DNA from: Escherichia coli
Lineage (GTDB): Bacteria; Pseudomonadota; Gammaproteobacteria; Enterobacterales; Enterobacteriaceae
Strand: one strand, 5' to 3'
DNA: 64,000 nt
NCBI RefSeq assembly: GCF_003790525.1
Contig: NZ_CP033635.1
In this document: piece by piece, positions 15,227-59,354 of the stretch
Layout: every line of letters starts with the position of its first letter
How positions within the stretch are numbered: position 1 is the first letter of the stretch
Program-made: the position numbers and the translations under genes
Notes under the pieces: generated by a model
Databases searched by the model: none
Told to the model about the DNA's origin: nothing
Seen by the model: only the letters and a program-made list of their open reading frames with translations

Positions 15227-17899
15227 ATGACAGATGTAACGATTAAAACGCTGGCCGCAGAGCGACAGACCTCCGTGGAACGCCTGGTACAGCAATTTGC
15301 TGATGCAGGTATCCGGAAGTCTGCTGACGACTCTGTGTCTGCACAAGAGAAACAGACTTTGATTGACCACCTGAATCAGAAAAATTCAGGCCCGGACAAA
15401 TTGACGCTGCAACGTAAAACACGCAGCACCCTTAACATTCCTGGTACCGGTGGAAAAAGCAAATCGGTACAAATCGAAGTCCGCAAGAAACGCACCTTTG
15501 TGAAACGCGATCCGCAAGAGGCTGAACGCCTTGCTGCGGAAGAGCAAGCGCAGCGTGAAGCGGAAGAGCAAGCCCGTCGTGAGGCAGAAGAATCGGCCAA
15601 ACGTGAGGCGCAACAAAAAGCTGAACGTGAGGCCGCAGAACAAGCTAAGCGTGAAGCTGCTGAACAAGCGAAACGTGAAGCTGCGGAAAAAGACAAAGTG
15701 AGCAATCAACAAGACGATATGACTAAAAACGCCCAGGCTGAAAAAGCCCGCCGTGAGCAGGAAGCTGCAGAGCTCAAGCGTAAAGCCGAAGAAGAAGCGC
15801 GTCGTAAACTCGAAGAAGAAGCACGTCGCGTTGCTGAAGAAGCACGTCGTATGGCGGAAGAAAACAAATGGACTGATAACGCGGAACCGACTGAAGATTC
15901 CAGCGATTATCACGTCACTACTTCTCAACATGCTCGCCAGGCAGAAGACGAAAGCGATCGTGAAGTCGAAGGCGGCCGTGGCCGTGGTCGTAACGCGAAA
16001 GCTGCGCGTCCGAAGAAAGGCAACAAACACGCTGAATCAAAAGCTGATCGTGAAGAAGCACGCGCAGCAGTACGTGGCGGTAAAGGCGGAAAACGTAAAG
16101 GTTCTTCGCTGCAGCAAGGCTTCCAGAAGCCTGCTCAGGCCGTTAACCGTGACGTTGTGATCGGTGAAACCATCACCGTTGGCGAACTGGCGAACAAGAT
16201 GGCGGTTAAAGGCTCTCAGGTCATCAAAGCGATGATGAAACTGGGCGCAATGGCAACCATCAACCAGGTTATCGATCAGGAAACCGCACAGCTGGTTGCT
16301 GAAGAGATGGGCCACAAAGTTATCCTGCGTCGTGAAAACGAGCTGGAAGAAGCGGTAATGAGCGACCGTGACACGGGTGCAGCGGCTGAACCGCGCGCGC
16401 CGGTTGTGACCATCATGGGTCACGTTGACCACGGTAAAACCTCTCTGCTGGACTACATTCGTTCAACGAAAGTGGCCTCTGGCGAAGCGGGCGGCATTAC
16501 CCAGCACATTGGTGCATACCACGTTGAAACTGAAAACGGCATGATCACCTTCCTGGACACCCCGGGGCACGCCGCGTTTACTTCAATGCGTGCTCGTGGT
16601 GCGCAGGCAACGGACATCGTAGTCCTGGTTGTTGCTGCCGACGACGGCGTAATGCCGCAGACCATCGAAGCAATCCAGCACGCGAAAGCGGCGCAGGTTC
16701 CGGTGGTCGTTGCAGTGAACAAGATCGATAAACCAGAAGCCGATCCGGATCGCGTTAAGAACGAACTCTCCCAGTACGGCATCCTGCCGGAAGAGTGGGG
16801 CGGTGAAAGCCAGTTCGTACATGTGTCTGCGAAAGCGGGTACTGGTATCGATGAGCTGCTGGACGCTATCCTGCTGCAGGCGGAAGTTCTGGAACTGAAA
16901 GCGGTACGTAAAGGCATGGCGAGCGGTGCGGTTATCGAATCCTTCCTCGATAAAGGTCGTGGTCCGGTTGCTACCGTTCTGGTACGTGAAGGTACTCTGC
17001 ACAAGGGCGATATCGTTCTGTGTGGCTTCGAATACGGTCGTGTTCGTGCTATGCGTAACGAACTGGGTCGGGAAGTGCTGGAAGCGGGTCCGTCCATTCC
17101 GGTGGAAATCCTCGGCCTGTCCGGCGTTCCGGCTGCGGGTGATGAAGTTACCGTTGTACGTGACGAGAAGAAAGCGCGTGAAGTTGCACTCTATCGTCAG
17201 GGTAAATTCCGCGAAGTTAAACTGGCGCGTCAGCAGAAATCTAAACTCGAGAACATGTTCGCCAACATGACCGAAGGCGAAGTTCACGAAGTGAATATCG
17301 TCCTGAAGGCAGACGTACAGGGTTCTGTGGAAGCTATCTCCGACTCCTTGCTGAAACTGTCTACTGACGAAGTTAAAGTGAAGATCATCGGTTCTGGCGT
17401 AGGTGGTATCACCGAAACCGACGCTACCCTGGCTGCGGCGTCCAACGCCATCCTGGTTGGCTTCAACGTACGTGCTGATGCCTCTGCACGTAAAGTAATT
17501 GAAGCGGAAAGCCTGGATCTGCGTTACTACTCCGTCATCTATAACCTGATCGACGAAGTGAAAGCGGCAATGAGCGGTATGCTGTCTCCGGAACTGAAAC
17601 AACAGATTATCGGTCTGGCGGAAGTTCGTGACGTATTCAAATCACCGAAATTTGGTGCCATCGCAGGTTGTATGGTTACCGAAGGTGTGGTTAAACGTCA
17701 CAACCCGATCCGCGTTCTGCGCGACAACGTGGTTATCTACGAAGGCGAGCTGGAGTCCCTGCGCCGCTTCAAAGATGACGTTAACGAAGTCCGTAACGGT
17801 ATGGAATGTGGTATCGGCGTTAAGAACTACAACGACGTCCGCACTGGCGATGTGATCGAAGTATTCGAAATCATCGAAATCCAACGTACCATCGCTTAA
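15227..17899 (+). CDS. infB: Translation initiation factor IF-2
   Basis: 890-aa [35 protein letters not shown]..., G-domain [12 protein letters not shown]; in-frame internal starts GTG 15698 (codon 158) and ATG 15719 (codon 165). Confidence 0.95.
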
Positions 17900-17914
17900 G
17901 GTTTTTAGGGTTCC

Positions 17915-17988
17915 ATGCGGGATAAGGCGTTTACGCCGCATCCGGCATGGATTGCCTGATGCGACGCTGGCGCGTCTTATCAGGCCAA
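17915..17988. repeat. REP/BIME element (two inverted REP palindromes) in infB-rbfA spacer
   Basis: GCGGGATAAGGCGTTTACGCCGCATCCGGC followed by GCCTGATGCGACGCTGGCGCGTCTTATCAGGCC. Confidence 0.7.
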
Positions 17989-18020
17989 CGTGAACAGCCC
18001 TTCCACCTGAAATTAATTTT

Positions 18021-18047
18021 AAAAAGGGGCTAACAGCCCCTTTTTTG
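18021..18047 (+). terminator. Hairpin plus T-run upstream of rbfA (partial terminator within operon)
   Basis: aaaaaGGGGCtaacaGCCCCttttttg. Confidence 0.5.
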
Positions 18048-18062
18048 TCAGGAGAATTTATT

Positions 18063-18464
18063 ATGGCGAAAGAATTTGGTCGCCCGCAGCGCGTAGCGCA
18101 GGAAATGCAAAAAGAGATCGCTCTCATCCTGCAGCGTGAAATTAAAGATCCTCGTCTGGGCATGATGACCACCGTTTCCGGTGTCGAAATGTCTCGTGAC
18201 CTGGCGTATGCCAAAGTATATGTGACGTTCCTCAACGACAAAGATGAAGACGCGGTTAAAGCGGGCATCAAAGCGTTGCAGGAAGCTTCTGGTTTCATCC
18301 GCAGCCTGCTGGGGAAAGCGATGCGCCTGCGTATCGTGCCGGAACTGACCTTCTTCTACGACAACTCGCTGGTTGAAGGGATGCGCATGTCAAACCTGGT
18401 GACCAGCGTGGTCAAACATGACGAAGAACGTCGTGTTAACCCGGACGACAGCAAGGAGGACTAA
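18063..18464 (+). CDS. rbfA: Ribosome-binding factor A
   Basis: ORF from ATG 18063 [33 protein letters not shown]..., 133 aa; SD AGGAG 18051-18055. Confidence 0.9.
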
Positions 18465-25423: not shown

Positions 25424-26668
25424 ATGGCAACACTAACCACCACCCAAACGTCACCGTCGCTGCTTGGCGGCGTGGTGATTATCGGCGGCACCATTATTGG
25501 CGCAGGGATGTTTTCTCTGCCAGTGGTCATGTCCGGGGCGTGGTTCTTCTGGTCAATGGCGGCGCTGATCTTTACCTGGTTCTGTATGCTGCATTCCGGC
25601 TTGATGATTCTGGAAGCTAACCTGAATTATCGAATCGGTTCGAGCTTTGACACCATCACCAAAGACCTGCTCGGCAAAGGCTGGAACGTAGTCAACGGCA
25701 TTTCCATTGCCTTTGTGCTCTATATCCTGACTTACGCCTATATTTCTGCCAGCGGTTCGATTCTGCATCACACCTTCGCGGAGATGTCGCTGAACGTCCC
25801 TGCACGGGCAGCTGGATTTGGTTTTGCACTACTGGTGGCGTTTGTGGTGTGGTTGAGCACCAAAGCGGTCAGCCGGATGACGGCGATTGTGCTGGGGGCG
25901 AAAGTCATTACGTTTTTCCTCACCTTCGGTAGCCTGCTGGGACATGTGCAGCCAACGACCTTGTTCAACGTTGCCGAAAGCAATGCGTCTTATGCGCCGT
26001 ATCTGCTGATGACACTGCCATTCTGTCTGGCATCTTTTGGTTATCACGGTAACGTGCCGAGCCTGATGAAGTATTACGGCAAAGATCCGAAAACCATCGT
26101 GAAATGCCTGGTGTACGGTACGCTGATGGCGCTGGCGCTGTATACCATCTGGTTGCTGGCGACGATGGGCAACATCCCTCGTCCGGAGTTTATCGGCATC
26201 GCCGAGAAGGGCGGTAATATTGATGTGCTGGTACAGGCGTTAAGCGGCGTGCTGAACAGCCGTAGCCTGGATCTGCTGCTGGTTGTGTTCTCAAACTTTG
26301 CGGTAGCGAGTTCGTTCCTCGGCGTTACGCTGGGTTTGTTTGACTATCTGGCAGATCTGTTTGGTTTCGATGACTCGGCTATGGGCCGCTTGAAAACAGC
26401 GTTGCTGACCTTTGCCCCGCCTGTTGTGGGTGGCCTGCTGTTTCCTAACGGATTCCTGTACGCCATTGGTTATGCTGGCTTAGCGGCTACCATCTGGGCG
26501 GCAATTGTTCCGGCGCTGTTGGCCCGCGCATCGCGTAAACGCTTTGGTAGCCCGAAATTCCGCGTCTGGGGCGGCAAGCCGATGATTATGCTGATTCTGG
26601 TATTTGGCGTTGGCAACGCACTGGTCCATATCTTATCGAGCTTTAATTTGCTGCCGGTGTATCAGTAA
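25424..26668 (+). CDS. mtr: Tryptophan-specific permease (HAAAP family)
   Basis: 414-aa polytopic [47 protein letters not shown]... Confidence 0.95.
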
Positions 26669-26675
26669 TCAGCGG

Positions 26676-26775
26676 TGCCTTATCCGACATTTCTGCTGCC
26701 TACACAATGCCTGATGCGCTTCGCTTATCAGGAATTGTGTAGGACAGCGTTGCCATCTCGGATAAGGCTTCCTAC
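26676..26775. repeat. Nested palindromic REP-like element between convergent mtr and yhbW
   Basis: GCCTTATCCGA ... TCGGATAAGGC and CCTACACAAT ... ATTGTGTAGG inverted repeats around GCCTGATGCGCTTCGCTTATCAGG. Confidence 0.6.
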
Positions 26776-26786
26776 GTTAAAACACA

Positions 26787-27794
26787 CTACCCCAATAATT
26801 CTTCCTTCACATCCATCACCAGCTCAAACGAATGCAGGCGCGCCTGGTGGTCGAAAATCTGCCCGTTAACCATAATTTCATCGGCGTCGGTTTCGCGCAG
26901 GATCGACTGCAAGCCATGACGCACTTTCGCTTTATCGCCCACCAGCGACATACTCAGCGCCTGCTGCACACCATACTGTTCGGACGGCGACCAGAACTGA
27001 TCCATATTTTGAATCGGTGGCGGCAGTTGCCCGGTTTCGCCGCGGCGCAGCTTCACAAAGGCTTGCTGCATTGAGGTAAACAGGAATTCGGCATCGCGGT
27101 TGCTGTCGGCGGCGATAATATTGATGCACACCATCGCATACGGTTTCTCCAACCGTGCCGACGGTTTGAAGTTGCTGCGATAAAGATGCAGCGCCTGGAA
27201 CAACATATCCGGCGCGAAGTGTGAGGCAAACGCAAACGGCAGACCAAGCTGCGCCGCCAGTTGCGCGCTGTAAAGGCTGGAGCCTAACAACCACACGGGG
27301 ATTTTCTCGCCATAGCCTGGTACCGGGCGCACATGCGGATTGGGATCGCGGGCGTCAAACCAGTCCACCAGTTCCGCGACATCGCGGGGGAAATTATCAA
27401 TATCGCCGCTCATATGACGACGCAGCGCCATCATGGTTCGCTGATCGCTACCCGGCGCGCGGCCCAGCCCCAAATCGATTCGCCCCGGATAGAGCGTATT
27501 GAGCGTGCCGAATTGTTCGGCGATCACCAACGGTGAGTGGTTAGGCAACATCACGCCGCCAGACCCCAGATGCAGCGTGGTGGTATTCGCCGCCAGATAG
27601 CCAATTAACACCGACGTTGCAGCACTGGCAATACCGGTCATATTGTGGTGTTCTGCCAGCCAGTAGCGATGATAGCCGTGCTTTTCAGCCAGACGGGCGA
27701 GATCGAGAGAGTGGGAGAACGCTTCTCGCGCTGAAGAGCCTTCGGGGATGGGGGCCAGATCGAGTAGCGAAAACGCAATGGTTTTATCAGTCAT
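26787..27794 (-). CDS. yhbW: Luciferase-like (flavin-dependent) monooxygenase family protein
   Basis: 335-aa [53 protein letters not shown]... Confidence 0.88.
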
Positions 27795-33103: not shown

Positions 33104-34144
33104 ATGACTGGTCAGTCTTCATCTCAGGCGGCAACGCCCATTCAGTGGTGGAAACCCGCGCTTTTCTTTCTCGTTGTCATTGCTGGTCTCTGGTATGTGA
33201 AATGGCAACCTTACTACGGCAAAGCGTTTACTGCTGCCGAAACCCACAGTATCGGTAAATCTATCCTTGCGCAGGCGGATGCTAATCCGTGGCAGGCGGC
33301 GTTGGATTACGCGATGATCTATTTCCTCGCGGTATGGAAAGCGGCGGTGCTGGGCGTACTGCTCGGGTCGTTGATTCAGGTGCTGATCCCGCGTGACTGG
33401 TTATTGCGTACGCTTGGGCAATCGCGCTTTCGCGGCACGCTGCTGGGAACGCTGTTTTCGCTGCCGGGCATGATGTGTACCTGCTGTGCGGCTCCGGTCG
33501 CGGCGGGAATGCGTCGCCAACAGGTGTCGATGGGCGGTGCGCTGGCATTCTGGATGGGGAATCCGTTGTTAAACCCGGCGACGCTGGTGTTTATGGGGTT
33601 CGTCCTCGGCTGGGGTTTTGCGGCGATTCGTCTGGTGGCGGGGCTGGTGATGGTGTTGCTGATTGCGACGCTGGTGCAAAAATGGGTGCGTGAAACACCG
33701 CAAACGCAGGCACCGGTCGAAATTGACATACCGGAAGCACAGGGAGGATTTTTTAGCCGCTGGGGCAGGGCGCTATGGACGCTTTTCTGGAGTACAATCC
33801 CGGTTTACATCCTTGCAGTACTGGTGTTGGGTGCCGCTCGCGTCTGGCTATTCCCCCATGCCGATGGTGCTGTCGATAACAGCCTGATGTGGGTGGTGGC
33901 GATGGCGGTGGCAGGATGCTTGTTTGTCATTCCCACGGCAGCAGAAATTCCGATTGTACAAACGATGATACTGGCAGGCATGGGAACCGCTCCGGCGCTG
34001 GCATTGTTGATGACGCTCCCGGCGGTGAGTTTGCCGTCACTGATTATGTTGCGTAAAGCGTTCCCGGCGAAAGCCTTATGGCTGACGGGGGCGATGGTGG
34101 CAGTGTCTGGTGTGATTGTCGGCGGGTTGGCGCTGTTGGCTTGA
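33104..34144 (+). CDS. yraQ: Putative permease (multi-pass membrane protein)
   Basis: 346-aa hydrophobic ORF MTGQSSSQAATPIQWWKPALFFLVVIAGLWYVKW... Confidence 0.88.
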   Translation: MTGQSSSQAATPIQWWKPALFFLVVIAGLWYVKWQPYYGKAFTAAETHSIGKSILAQADANPWQAALDYAMIYFLAVWKAAVLGVLLGSLIQVLIPRDWLLRTLGQSRFRGTLLGTLFSLPGMMCTCCAAPVAAGMRRQQVSMGGALAFWMGNPLLNPATLVFMGFVLGWGFAAIRLVAGLVMVLLIATLVQKWVRETPQTQAPVEIDIPEAQGGFFSRWGRALWTLFWSTIPVYILAVLVLGAARVWLFPHADGAVDNSLMWVVAMAVAGCLFVIPTAAEIPIVQTMILAGMGTAPALALLMTLPAVSLPSLIMLRKAFPAKALWLTGAMVAVSGVIVGGLALLA

Positions 34145-34159
34145 TTTGAGGGAAAACAT

Positions 34160-34248
34160 GTCGGATGCGGCGTAAACGCCTTATCCGACCTACGGTTTGC
34201 ATCGTTGTAGGCCTGATAAGACGCTGCAAGCGTCGCATCAGGCATTAC
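34160..34248. repeat. REP/BIME element between convergent yraQ and dolP
   Basis: GTCGGATGCGGCGTAAACGCCTTATCCGACCTAC and inverted GTAGGCCTGATAAGACGCTGCAAGCGTCGCATCAGGC. Confidence 0.7.
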
Positions 34249-34256
34249 AAGGGCTG

Positions 34257-34832
34257 CTATTTAATAAACGTAAACGCCGTAGTTACACGCTTTACGCCGC
34301 TCACCCGGCTGGCAATATCTGCCGCCGCTTTCGCTTCACGTTCAGTCACCAGCCCCATCAGGAACACTTCACCGTTTTCGGTGGTCACTTTCACGTTGGA
34401 CGATTTCACCAGGTCGCTGGTTAACAGCTGCGAACGCACTTTGGTGGTGATCCACGTATCGTTAGACGCTTCGCCCAGACCAATCGGCTGGCCCTGACGA
34501 ATCTCGTTATACACTTCGTTGGCACCGTCTACGCCCATCGCAATTTGTTTAGCGCGAGCCGAAAGTTCAGCGTTTGGTGACTGCCCAACCAACAGCACTT
34601 TGCCCTGATACGCCGTGACATTAATACGGGTTTCTTTCTTAATCTGTTCGTCTTTCGACAATGCGCTGTTCACGCGCACTTCCAGGGTACCATCGTCCAC
34701 CTGGGTGCCGACACTGCGTGGGTCAGTTGCGGCTTTGGTACCTACAGCAGCGGTACCCACTACGGCAGCGGCAACACAACCTTGCAACAGCAGCGCGGAA
34801 AGAAGGACTGCGATTGGCGATAATGCCTTCAT
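34257..34832 (-). CDS. dolP: BON-domain outer-membrane lipoprotein DolP (YraP)
   Basis: 191-aa ORF MKALSPIAVLLSALLLQGCVAAAVVGTAAVGT... with lipobox and two BON-like repeats. Confidence 0.9.
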   Translation of the reverse strand: MKALSPIAVLLSALLLQGCVAAAVVGTAAVGTKAATDPRSVGTQVDDGTLEVRVNSALSKDEQIKKETRINVTAYQGKVLLVGQSPNAELSARAKQIAMGVDGANEVYNEIRQGQPIGLGEASNDTWITTKVRSQLLTSDLVKSSNVKVTTENGEVFLMGLVTEREAKAAADIASRVSGVKRVTTAFTFIK

Positions 34833-47966: not shown

Positions 47967-49247
47967 TTATTGGCCTTCACAGGCTGTGTGGTACTGCGCC
48001 AGGATGTCCTGAATATGGTTGATAATGAGTTCCCGTGGTGTTGGCTGCAGCTCGCCGGAGCGAACTTTCACGTATTGCAGCGGCAAATACTGGCTGATCA
48101 GCGGTAGCGGAATTGGTGAATCCGCCAGATTACGAACCAGATGAGCGAAAGCGTCATCAATCTGGCTGTCCGGCCAGTAATAGCGCACGCGATCCGAGTA
48201 GCTATAACCACGCGCCAGACGACGCGCGTTGCCGTCACCGTGGTAGTGGCTTTGCCAGTATTCCGGGCGGTCGAGCATCACGTTTTCCAGCACCTGACGC
48301 AGACCAGAACAGGCTTTTGCTGGTACCAGTTCTTCTTCAATCGCCGCCAGAGAGAACAGAGCTTCACGCAGAGCAAAGGTCAGCGCCGGGCCAACTTTCA
48401 GAATGGCAAAGTGGTCAATCACCAGCTGGCGCAGCGATTGCGGCGTTTGGTAATCAGTAGAGTGCGCTTCGAAAATCAGCGTTTCGTAGTTTTCGACCAT
48501 CTGGCTTAAGGCGGTCGCTTTGACGGGCTGATAATCAATAACGTTGGTGTGATCGAATTCGACGCCGGGTTGAACCACCAGGGCAATAATGCGTGGCCAG
48601 ATGGCACTCAGACCTTGCTTTTCAAAGGCGTGACGATGGGCTTCCAGCGTGGCGCGGGCGGCATCCGGCGTGGTGACCGCCAGCTCGCTTAAGGTTTCAT
48701 GCGCGCCGCCAGGTACCGGTACTTCGGTACCAATGACATACTCCAGATCGGCCGCGCCAAAATGTTCACGGCAGGTTTCTTCCGCCACTTTCGCCAGACG
48801 AGCGGCGCGTTCGGCCACGATGTCATCAGTTAAGGGAATCGGATCGTCCTGACAGGACATGCTGCAATCAAGGTGAATTTTTTTGAATCCTGCCGCCACG
48901 TAGCTTTTAATCAAATCATCGGCATTGGCCATTGCCTGAGCGGCAGGCAGGTTTTGCCAGCGGTTTGGCCCCAGATGGTCGCCACCCAGAATCAACGCAT
49001 CCTGTGGGAAATTCAACGAGTCGGCGAGCTGACAAACAAAGCCGCGAAAATCGGCGGGCGTCATTCCGGTATAACCGCCGAACTGGTCCACCTGATTGGA
49101 GGTTGCTTCAATCAGTAACGGCGTTTGGTTTGCACTGGCGTAGCGGATTGCAGCTTCCAGCACCAGCGGATGTGCGGAACAAACGGCATAAATCCCATTT
49201 GTTTTGCCCTCTTTGTGCTGTCTCACCATTTCTGTCAGATGTTTCAC
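47967..49247 (-). CDS. kbaZ: Tagatose-bisphosphate aldolase non-catalytic subunit KbaZ (AgaZ)
   Basis: 426-aa ORF (GTG start) [55 protein letters not shown]... Confidence 0.9.
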
Positions 49248-57945: not shown

Positions 57946-57954
57946 GTTTTACGT

Positions 57955-57980
57955 AAAAACCCGCTTCGGCGGGTTTTTGC
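57955..57980 (+). terminator. rnpB terminator (repeat copy 1)
   Basis: aaaaaCCCGCttcgGCGGGtttttgc. Confidence 0.75.
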
Positions 57981-58069
57981 TTTTTGGAGGAGCGGAAAGA
58001 TGAATGACTGTCCACGACGCTATACCCAAAAGAAAGCGGCTTATCGGTCAGTTTCACCTGTTTTACGTA

Positions 58070-58096
58070 AAAAACCGCTTCGGCGGGTTTTTGCTT
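58070..58096 (+). terminator. Second terminator (repeat copy 2)
   Basis: aaaaaaCCGCttcgGCGGgtttttgc. Confidence 0.7.
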
Positions 58097-58166
58097 TTTG
58101 GAGCATAGTGTAAGATGAATAAATATCTACGGTATTAATAATAGACTTTGTAAGAAATTATTAAGT

Positions 58167-59354
58167 CTATATTGCATTTAAAAGGTCGTAATCATACGTA
58201 TAGTCCTCTCTGGTAAAATATTGCTTCTCTGAGTTATAAGCTTCATATGTGTTATATTTTACGACCTCAAAGCAATTGTCATGAGAATTTTCGTCTTTCT
58301 CTAGTGTATTATCTGAAAGGAATTCCTCTGAGCTAGAATCCTCTATGTTTAAATCTGTATTGTAATTAATTTTTGGAACGATTAGATAAGCATTTTCTTT
58401 GACGCTTTCATAATCTTTAATGATTATATCGATGTAATAATCTATTTTTTCTAATGAGAATGCTTTCATCTCTGGTAATTTAATTCTGTTCAAGTAATTG
58501 TTAATTTTCGATGAGCTTTTATATATTTCTTTTGTTAATTCATTTTCTAATTCATCTGTTAGAGTTGCTCTTGGTATAGATTCTATAATTGCAAGTCTCA
58601 TAATTTTTAATTGTTCTTCGGTAATATCTCCAAGCGCATTTAAACAACTTTCGACAAGCTTAATTTTTTCTTCAGAATACATATCGTTAATGCTTGTTAT
58701 AACAGGCGTTATTTTTAGTAAATAATCCCATGAGATTGTGGCGTTTTGTTTTGAACTAACGAAATTTACCTGAAACATGTTGGCATTAGTAAAATCTGTG
58801 TCATCCAATTTAAAAGGATTTAAAATTGTATTGGCCATATGTTTATCTGTAAAATCATAAAGTTCTAAATCGACATTCCGTAAGTCCAGAGAGGATAGAT
58901 CAACTATACCTCCAGTCCCACAACTAAAGATTACGTTCAACCTCCTGATTTCATTGTAAATGTCTTTCAATGGGCAATTAACATTGATATTGCCTGTGGA
59001 TATTTCCTGGTTTTTTAACGGTTCATTAATTGTAAGTTCACAGGTATTGTCTGATCGTTGGATAATTCGGGCGTTATAACCAAAAAAATCCATACGAAGA
59101 GACGAATCATTATAAAGAATTACATTTTGTAAGTACGCTAATTCTTTTTGAAAATCACCAGTGATAATGCATTTCCCACCTGGTTGTAACGCGTTAAGTA
59201 AAGTGACCATTTCAATAGAGGTCTGTTTTAGTTTTTCTATACCTGGTGCTAGTGCTTCGAGGTTATTAACTATGGGGCTTTCAGGAAGATCATTCATTTT
59301 TCGACGGACTAAATCACTACTAATATCATTACCAATTGATGAAACAGGGAACAT
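58167..59354 (-). CDS. yhaC: Protein of unknown function YhaC (AT-rich gene)
   Basis: 395-aa ORF MFPVSSIGNDISSDLVRRKMNDLPESPIVNNLEALAPGIEKLKQ...; N/K/I/E/Y-rich composition, low GC. Confidence 0.8.
   Translation of the reverse strand: MFPVSSIGNDISSDLVRRKMNDLPESPIVNNLEALAPGIEKLKQTSIEMVTLLNALQPGGKCIITGDFQKELAYLQNVILYNDSSLRMDFFGYNARIIQRSDNTCELTINEPLKNQEISTGNINVNCPLKDIYNEIRRLNVIFSCGTGGIVDLSSLDLRNVDLELYDFTDKHMANTILNPFKLDDTDFTNANMFQVNFVSSKQNATISWDYLLKITPVITSINDMYSEEKIKLVESCLNALGDITEEQLKIMRLAIIESIPRATLTDELENELTKEIYKSSSKINNYLNRIKLPEMKAFSLEKIDYYIDIIIKDYESVKENAYLIVPKINYNTDLNIEDSSSEEFLSDNTLEKDENSHDNCFEVVKYNTYEAYNSEKQYFTREDYTYDYDLLNAI

Follow-up and report, generated by a model that had tools for sequence, protein, structure and literature searches.

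The 64-kb stretch of DNA analysed here (the window) carries units of the Escherichia coli REP (palindromic unit) family at four intergenic sites, an identity that can be assigned with high confidence, and at two of these, infB-rbfA (site 1) and yraQ/dolP (site 3), the units form BIME-2-type pairs. The four sites are ordinary and already described, and nothing about them departs from known biology; few bacterial repeats have been known for as long as REP and BIME sequences, and the finding matters little beyond correct annotation. That annotation is corrected here with respect to site 1, where the conserved regulator of the infB-to-rbfA step would be the terminator t3 and not the repeat that precedes it, and where the match to the Rfam family 'naRNA4' denotes a 'y-z2 REP pair' and not a small-RNA gene.

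The window belongs to the E. coli chromosome; a 1-kb query taken from it had an identity of 100% with strain SC516 and of ~98% with most of the other complete E. coli genomes, and the gene coordinates were transferred from the SC516 annotation. All four REP sites are extragenic and lie between annotated coding sequences. Convergent gene pairs flank site 2, placed between mtr (25424-26668, + strand) and yhbW (26787-27794, - strand), and site 3, placed between yraQ (33104-34144, + strand) and dolP (34257-34832, - strand). Co-directional genes flank site 1, located between infB (15227-17899, + strand) and rbfA (18063-18464, + strand), and site 4, located between agaA (annotated as nagA; 44231-45364, - strand) and agaS (42726-43880, - strand), so that site 4, with both of its genes on the minus strand, is not a convergent junction. 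A first-pass annotation made from the sequence had named these same four junctions as REP-bearing; on the SC516 annotation its gene labels were all correct, and it had placed the sites to within a few bases.

In order to verify the REP identity, published references for y, z1 and z2, as given in the Methods of PMC11208160, were fitted along both strands of the window and scored by edit distance. The references matched at all four sites, with distances of 4/35 (y, GTAG orientation, + strand) and 1/37 (z2) at site 1, 5/30 (z1) at site 2, 2/35 (y) and 3/37 (z2) at site 3, and a weak 7/37 at site 4. The outcome named as a refutation along with the first-pass annotation, a failure of the sequences to match the REP consensus, thus did not occur. 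No match to the y and z2 references with up to 8 edits was obtained elsewhere on either strand of the 64-kb window, and two further matches of the short z1 reference at 8/30, both in coding sequence, were dismissed as background. The head motif GCCKGATGCGRCG occurred seven times at up to one mismatch, against a mean of 0.37 and a maximum of 2 in 30 dinucleotide shuffles, and sites 1, 3 and 4 accounted for six of these seven matches. The remaining one, located at 44358 inside agaA and carrying one mismatch, is without a palindromic partner arm and was attributed to chance. By consensus fit and head-motif scan, no REP sites were found in the window beyond these four.

Folding supported the consensus analysis at sites 1-3, where z-scores relative to shuffles ranged from -4.7 to -9.5 (-5.5 to -9.5 for whole sites) and where the two-base stem mismatch of the REP family, an internal AA/GC-type bubble, was visible in the predicted structures. 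Megablast located the site-1 query at a median of 11-12 places per E. coli genome, the site-3 query at 5-6, the site-4 query at 2 and the site-2 query at 1, the z1 unit of site 2 being too short for this program. The RefSeq feature table of K-12 (NC_000913.3) contains no repeat features at the four loci. The term 'canonical', which the first-pass annotation had applied to all four sites, is appropriate for site 3 and for the stems of site 1 but not for site 4, which is degenerate and folds with a z-score of -0.94; with regard to the GTAG/CTAC feet it suits site 3 but neither site 1 nor the z1 unit of site 2.

The infB-rbfA spacer measures 163 nt and comprises, in this order, a y unit, a 5-nt linker, a z2 unit, a 31-nt A/U-rich stretch, a terminator hairpin, the sequence AGGAG and the rbfA start codon. 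The y-type unit, GCGGGATAAGGCGTTTACGCCGCATCCGGCA, lies at 17917-17947 on the + strand in GTAG orientation; it carries CCAT in place of the GTAG foot, and in this allele its hairpin (-23.8 kcal/mol, z -4.65) is lengthened to 17912-17951 by TCCATGC/GCATGGA. The z2-type unit, TGCCTGATGCGACGCTGGCGCGTCTTATCAGGCCAAC, at 17953-17989 on the + strand and in inverse orientation, has a CAAC and not a CTAC foot and folds at -21.4 kcal/mol (z -4.80). The two units thus stand head-to-head across the linker. The Rfam model naRNA4 (RF02564) matched positions 17916-17986 (+) over its full length with 77.2 bits, as compared with a gathering score of 59.5, and a score of 41 bits was obtained on the reverse strand.

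Site 1 was detected in 5422 of 5426 complete E. coli genomes, in which a 221-nt query, one third of it made up by the pair, was covered to at least 80%, and no multi-copy allele was seen among the E. coli genomes compared. Two sequence forms of the site were present among the strains and relatives compared. The GTAG form, GTAGGCCGGAT...CCGGCAGCCGT, was found in E. coli AHB5, S1-ISR-02-A and E69, in E. albertii, in Pseudocitrobacter and in Citrobacter, the last of which has z1 instead of z2; most of these sequences also keep CTAC, the z2 foot being mutated in AHB5 and E. albertii. The form of the window and of K-12, TCCATGCGGGAT...CCGGCATGGAT, is without GTAG, has CAAC for CTAC and carries 5 additional base pairs in the y stem. 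Judging from the identity classes of the genome matches, this extended-stem form appears to be the majority allele.

Downstream of the REP pair, at a distance of 31 nt, begins a hairpin that resembles an intrinsic terminator and carries a T6 tract (AAAAAGGGGCT AAC AGCCCCTTTTTT; 18021-18046, + strand), which folds at -15.2 kcal/mol (z -3.73) and is followed by the Shine-Dalgarno sequence AGGAG (18050-18054, + strand) and the rbfA ATG at 18063. The first-pass annotation had made no mention of this hairpin. From its position, and because it is the sole terminator-like structure there, we infer that it corresponds to the published terminator t3; a consensus terminator scanner did not report it, and the call rests on folding and on the literature. 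Brandi et al. (PMC6511841) placed t3 'just upstream of rbfA' in the metY-rimP-nusA-infB-rbfA-truB operon, explained a rimP-nusA-infB transcript of ~4.8 kb by termination at t3 and one of ~6.7 kb by read-through, and cited rbfA mRNA as about half as abundant as infB mRNA.

To compare this region across genera, the rbfA locus was taken from 80 species-representative enterobacterial genomes, and the spacer could be delimited in 79 of them, with lengths from 62 to 289 nt. The 3' block of the spacer, consisting of a G/C hairpin, a T-rich tail, GGAG and the ATG, was present in 79 of the 79 genomes, and its T tract was uninterrupted in 66. The repeats upstream of the hairpin differed by genus in type, orientation and presence. 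Spacers of at most 75 nt, 14 in number, had no REP upstream of the hairpin (for example Cedecea, Buttiauxella, Shimwellia, Atlantibacter and Franconibacter), 39 had a single different REP-like palindrome, GTAGGCCGGGTAAGCGAAGCGCCACCCGGCA or similar (for example Klebsiella, Enterobacter, many Citrobacter and Raoultella), 8 had the E. coli-type y+z pair, and z1-like units in the other orientation were seen in a few Salmonella and Citrobacter relatives. Nine spacers had acquired the core of an additional element, which we take to be ERIC-like from its resemblance to the ERIC core.

The terminator hairpin is thus the conserved, and hence probably selected, element of the infB-rbfA spacer, and the REP is a changeable occupant of a permissive site. 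As conservation in the 79 genomes extends to the t3 hairpin and to the Shine-Dalgarno sequence but not to the REP content, the BIME at this locus is at most an accessory modulator. The first-pass annotation had proposed that the repeat could modulate differential expression within the operon; the difference between infB and rbfA is better explained by the conserved t3 than by the repeat. Nor is such a role for the BIME a new idea, for it was published as a hypothesis by Naville and Gautheret in 2010 (PMC2965389), who listed the BIME upstream of rbfA, gatY and cvpA as a possible attenuator.

The y-type unit of site 3, TGTCGGATGCGGCGTAAACGCCTTATCCGACCTAC (34159-34193, + strand), begins 15 nt past the yraQ stop codon and has an intact CTAC foot, and its z2-type unit (34207-34244, - strand) has an intact GTAG/CTAC foot; the two are arranged tail-to-tail with a 13-nt linker at 34194-34206. 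The z2 unit contains the sole exact copy in the window of the natural IS621 target, ATCAGGCCTAC, located at 34207 on the minus strand. Both units match halves of the naRNA4 model, with 32-38 bits (38.4 for the y unit), and no convincing intrinsic terminator was found in the yraQ/dolP spacer. One pair is present at this site in most E. coli genomes, two tandem pairs in a 204-nt spacer occur in some strains (WCHEC025943, M24FEP), and 429 genomes have no REP here and carry instead a different dispersed repeat, which is found at a median of 6 places per genome.

At site 2, a single z1-type unit, TGCCTGATGCGCTTCGCTTATCAGGA (26708-26733, + strand), forms the centre of a longer inverted repeat, an imperfect palindrome of ~92 nt (26677-26768) centred on the z1 loop, so that this site is a lone z1 unit in a longer palindrome and not a REP pair. 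In this strain AATTGT replaces the CTAC foot of the unit. The outer arms of the palindrome are GCCTTATCCGA and TCGGATAAGGC and the middle arms CCTACACAAT and AATTGTGTAGG; the outer arms look like remnants of y arms. The palindrome takes up most of the 118-nt convergent mtr/yhbW spacer, with predicted fold energies of -52 and -55 kcal/mol for its two strands (z -9.2 and -9.45), and no match to the intrinsic-terminator consensus was found in this spacer. An assignment of site 2 to BIME-1 (RIB/RIP) was considered and rejected, as the site has neither a complete y unit nor an IHF consensus; no copy of the IHF consensus WATCAANNNNTTR was found within the four sites or close to them.

Among E. coli genomes, 4836 covered at least 80% of the site-2 query, and ~400 matched its left half only. 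In one genome of the latter group that was inspected, a copy of IS621 was present directly after ...ATCAGGTCT. IS621 is known to target REPs at ATCAGGCCTAC, with a CT core (PMC11208160; PMC1525189), and its insertion point at site 2 is this known target position. The z1 tail at site 2 reads GGCCTAC, GGTCTAC or, in K-12, GGTCTAT in other strains, which are also seen to read ...ATCAGGCCTAC here, and the window carries the minority allele GGAATTGT, by which the right arm becomes complementary to the left flank.

On the minus strand, which is the transcribed one, site 4 consists of a degenerate REP unit (44155-44119), 4 nt, and a remnant of a second unit (44114-44101). The degenerate unit, TGTCGGATGCGACGCTGACGCGTCTTCTTCGACCTAC (44119-44155, - strand), retains CTAC but has an eroded 3' arm, GTCTTCTTCGAC as compared with GTCTTATCCGAC in K-12, and it is better preserved in K-12 and O157 (...GTCTTATCCGACCTAC). 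The 14-nt remnant, TGCCGGATGCGGCG (44101-44114, + strand), is an exact head-motif match of y type; a full second y unit is present at this place in K-12, O157 and others, as seen in an alignment with K-12, ATCC 43889 and Z0117EC0054, and about half of the E. coli records have the allele of the window. The fold energy of the 71-nt region is -27.8 kcal/mol, that of its shuffles -25.0 kcal/mol (z -0.94), which does not distinguish it as a stable palindrome. Site 4 is a decaying REP relic with little or no structure left, and it is probably inert.

The comparison of orthologous junctions, which had been proposed along with the first-pass annotation, therefore shows a nearly fixed site 1 in E. coli and polymorphic sites 2-4. 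These junctions are hot spots of turnover for REPs, IS621, ERIC-like elements and other small repeats, and strain-to-strain differences in 3'UTR structure are therefore to be expected. The strain polymorphism of sites 2-4 is as compatible with weak or absent selection as with a tunable function.

The GTAG/CTAC foot, which is required for binding and cleavage by TnpA(REP) (PMC3333891), has been retained by the two site-3 units and by the unit of site 4, whereas in this strain site 1 and the z1 unit of site 2 lack it. At the positions of these lost feet, GTAG/CTAC is still found in other E. coli lineages and in outgroups. The clustered changes that replaced the feet also lengthen the hairpin, and might be the signature of palindrome-templated (template-switch) mutation. 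If this is true, such events would have immobilised the REPs and erased the IS621 target. The lost feet of site 1 and the eroded site 4 are also as would be expected under neutral decay.

With regard to function, we consider it likely that the REP copies in the window act locally and passively as RNA hairpins, and that at infB-rbfA they do so as an add-on to t3. According to this model, REPs would owe their dispersal and rearrangement to the REP-associated tyrosine transposase and would persist in the untranslated ends of transcription units, where their G+C-rich hairpins, once transcribed, would halt 3'-5' exonucleases (PNPase, RNase II) and thereby delimit the upstream message and stabilise its 3' end; some Rho-linked attenuation is also conceivable. 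REP hairpins have been described to block PNPase and RNase II, to shield upstream mRNA from such 3'-5' exonucleases and to determine where transcripts that Rho terminates further downstream have their steady-state 3' ends (PMC6061677). A 2026 preprint (Harris et al., 10.64898/2026.03.23.713779) reported that REP-containing convergent gene pairs are more highly expressed, that REP-containing tandem pairs have a higher upstream/downstream ratio, and that the element REP325 stabilises its upstream message and is also a partly Rho-dependent terminator. Stabiliser or attenuator action at the four loci studied here, which is deduced from this literature, is proposed with moderate confidence. As the mRNA half-lives of genes ending in a REP are not longer genome-wide according to the preprint, a stabiliser role at any single locus is not assured, and the preprint names none of six genes at the present sites.

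The first-pass annotation had assigned a probable role as mRNA 3' stabilisers to the repeats between convergent genes. The hairpins could there act on both strands, for mtr and yhbW at site 2 and for yraQ and dolP at site 3, and since neither of these spacers has a convincing intrinsic terminator, the two palindromes are natural candidates for the 3' ends of both gene pairs; within these two spacers, strong 3' structure is provided by the REPs alone. At site 1, t3 would set the drop from infB to rbfA-truB, and the REP pair upstream of it would be a lineage-specific add-on. This pair may at most form a second barrier to exonucleases behind t3, protect infB mRNA once it has been cut in the A/U-rich stretch, and slightly bias the ratio between upstream and downstream expression.

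Alternatively, the REPs at these loci may be functionless parasites or fossils, tolerated in non-essential spacers and without a measurable effect on their neighbours, a reading which is possible but which we do not favour. It would agree with the variable content of site 3, where one unit, two units or another dispersed repeat is found depending on the strain, with the breakage of site 2 by IS621 in some strains and with the truncation here of a site 4 that is full-length in K-12 and O157. The genus-dependent REP content of the infB-rbfA spacer, missing altogether from the 14 short spacers, the disappearance of the GTAG/CTAC feet from sites 1 and 2 and the lack of a genome-wide half-life effect in the 2026 preprint point in the same direction. 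However, 5422 of 5426 E. coli genomes retain site 1, most of the Enterobacteriaceae genera sampled have some REP-like palindrome just upstream of t3, exonucleases should, on physical grounds, be blocked by hairpins as stable as these (-21 to -55 kcal/mol) when they lie in a transcribed 3' region (PMC6061677), and REPs are associated with genome-wide expression biases in the same preprint. A role at the level of DNA, in which the y+z2 pairs of sites 1 and 3 would be preferred binding and cleavage sites of DNA gyrase and would help in managing supercoiling near transcribed genes, appears unlikely. The y+z2 composition of both sites is that of BIME-2, and a subset of BIME-2 elements is enriched in sites of gyrase cleavage, mostly in y units and independently of transcription (PMC6379681), but only this subset is cleaved, the strong examples are multi-copy arrays whereas the window has single pairs, and sites 2 and 4 are not BIME-2 at all.

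The infB-rbfA spacer might further be read as a translation-sensing attenuator, with the BIME as a structural spacer and the ribosome at the infB stop codon tuning read-through into rbfA-truB. In such a scheme, AGGGUU (17907-17912), located 8-13 nt past the infB stop codon, would pair with AGCCCUU (17996-18002), which could alternatively pair with the 5' arm of t3 (18024-18031) as an anti-terminator; AGGGUU, as the competitor for AGCCCUU, would be within reach of the terminating ribosome, whose occupancy would set the level of read-through. The minimum free energy structure of the full-length spacer does place both REP hairpins inside an AGGGU:GCCCU helix, folding of the nascent RNA up to the t3 loop yields a predicted AGCCCUU:AAGGGGCU hairpin, masking of the first 13 nt past the stop codon costs the terminator-containing state ~9 kcal/mol, BIME-bearing relatives keep the GGGT and AGCCC flanks, and possible anti-terminators for the rbfA BIME were drawn by Naville and Gautheret (PMC2965389). 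We nevertheless find this mechanism rather improbable, as it is a purely thermodynamic prediction for sequences whose divergence is too low for covariation, as the candidate anti-terminator is much weaker than t3, and as t3 is kept in genera without the BIME, so that the regulation is independent of the latter. Read-through of t3 in the cold, moreover, is attributed to proteins of the CspA family, which also counts against an attenuator of this kind. Lastly, the match of site 1 to RF02564 at 17916-17986, which at 77.2 bits is above the gathering score, could be taken to mean that the site encodes a naRNA4-type nucleoid-associated small RNA that condenses the chromosome together with HU. This identity was rejected and is highly improbable, since the Rfam family is simply the y-z2 pair of REP325, to which any such pair will match, and the score demonstrates REP-pair identity and not small-RNA function; the reverse strand of site 1 (41 bits) and the site-3 units (32-38 bits) score as well. 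In the 2026 preprint, which comes from the same laboratory line, REP325/naRNA4 had no measurable effect on nucleoid compaction and was regarded as a local 3'UTR element. Passive, local action of the REPs as RNA hairpins remains our preferred reading.

Among known systems, the closest is the REP family itself together with its BIME-2 class, as defined by Gilson, Bachellier and Hofnung and, with regard to family definition and mobility, by Ton-Hoang et al. in 2012 (PMC3333891). Sites 1-3 differ from the published y, z1 and z2 sequences by 1-5 edits and share with the family the imperfect palindrome of 30-40 nt, the two-base stem mismatch, the extragenic location and the multi-copy nature. They differ from it in this strain by the absence of the TnpA(REP) foot from both site-1 units and from the z1 unit of site 2, and site 4 differs in being degenerate and truncated. 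Like BIME-2, sites 1 and 3 combine a y unit with an inversely oriented z2 unit across a short linker, and the number of units at site 3 differs between strains, as described for this class, although the window holds only one pair per site; site 2 is neither BIME-1 nor BIME-2.

Site 1 resembles in particular REP325 of the yjdM-yjdN spacer, one y-z2 unit of which constitutes the naRNA4 model (Qian et al., 2015; PMC4550694). Both have the same head-to-head order of y, linker and z2, as reflected in the full-length Rfam match, and both are located between two co-directional genes of one operon; the stabiliser and partial terminator role proposed for REP325 is the model that matches the idea put forward for site 1 in the first-pass annotation. 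On the other hand, REP325 has six tandem units (12 palindromes) and site 1 has one, the linker of site 1 is 6 nt shorter, and site 1, unlike REP325, is followed by a separate conserved intrinsic terminator. The candidate attenuators of Naville and Gautheret concern the same locus and the same idea, namely that the BIME upstream of rbfA attenuates transcription; their argument was built on the conserved sequence and position of the repeat, whereas in the 79 genomes compared here it is the terminator that is conserved and the repeat that is not. The t3 terminator (PMC6511841), which unlike the units of site 1 is not a REP, fits the hairpin at 18021-18046 in its position and in its hairpin and U-tract, and it explains the ~4.8-kb transcript without rbfA.

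At the infB-rbfA spacer (site 1, a y and z2 REP pair) and the mtr/yhbW spacer (site 2, a z1 unit), a cluster of five to seven changes stands where other strains carry the GTAG/CTAC foot.

These foot-replacing clusters lengthen the hairpin at both places, in the tail of site 2 (window 26727-26743) and in the y unit of site 1 (17912-17951). Compared with other strains, GGCCTAC at site 2 has become GGAATTGT, which is complementary to the left flank CCTACACAAT, and in the y unit of site 1 GTAGGCC...GGCAGCCGT has become TCCATGC...GCATGGA. The clusters look like the product either of palindrome-templated (template-switch) mutation or of gene conversion. Replacement of the foot would abolish the motif recognized by TnpA(REP), the REP-associated tyrosine transposase, at both sites, and at site 2 it would abolish the target of IS621 as well.

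IS621 is an element of the IS110 family with a bridge-RNA recombinase. In E. coli Z0117EC0148 a copy interrupts the z1 unit between mtr and yhbW (L085 401-899, corresponding approximately to window position 26732), inserted directly after ...TTATCAGGTCT. A half-length match like that of Z0117EC0148 was found at mtr/yhbW in about 400 genomes, the insertion itself having been read in Z0117EC0148 alone. The exact natural target of IS621, ATCAGGCCTAC, has a single copy in the window, on the minus strand at 34207-34217, within the z2 unit of the REP pair between yraQ and dolP.

The yraQ/dolP junction varies among strains. Two BIME units stand there in tandem in the strains of L086 and L087, and in 429 E. 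coli genomes the BIME is replaced by another dispersed repeat, which in strain 500010 (L088 346-466) substitutes for window 34145-34256. This repeat, with the core CCCCTCTCCCCTTTGGGGAGAGGGTTAGGGTGAGGGG and a median of six places per genome, is presumably a Box C element. Nine of 79 infB-rbfA spacers, including those of S. enterica diarizonae (L009), Raoultella (L015), Intestinirhabdus (L023) and C. braakii (L053), contain an element core with the palindromic ...CACCCCGGTCACATAGTTATCTATGCTCCCGGGGAT..., which resembles the ERIC/IRU repeat. As several small-repeat families occur in the infB-rbfA spacers, this spacer is a repeated landing site. In the allele shared by the window and K-12, AACAGCCCTT (17996-18002), upstream of the intrinsic terminator t3, approximates a copy of the t3 loop and 3' arm, AACAGCCCCTT (18032-18044), and its predicted pairing partner in nascent RNA is the 5' arm of t3.

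The spacer from rnpB to the yhaC homologue (window ∼57946-58167) measures 221 nt versus 613 nt in K-12. Repeats are known downstream of rnpB, and this length difference suggests that their copy number differs.

Directly past the agaA stop codon, a weak minus-strand hairpin, GGGCCTT...AAGGCC (44189-44213), whose fold barely beats shuffled sequences (z −1.67), is followed by a long U/C-rich tract and then by the REP relic of the agaA-agaS spacer. The remainder of this spacer contains repeated TTTCGTTT/AAACGAAA motifs, which resemble operator sites of AgaR in the region of the agaS promoter. Unlike in K-12, the agaI/rsmI junction (∼38800-38900) is without the yraHIJK fimbrial operon, the agaI-rsmI gap being 49 bp. 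Within the aga cluster (44231-49000), the agaW-agaE-agaF-agaA segment is intact, whereas the known deletion in this segment of K-12 has left the pseudogenes agaW' and agaA'.
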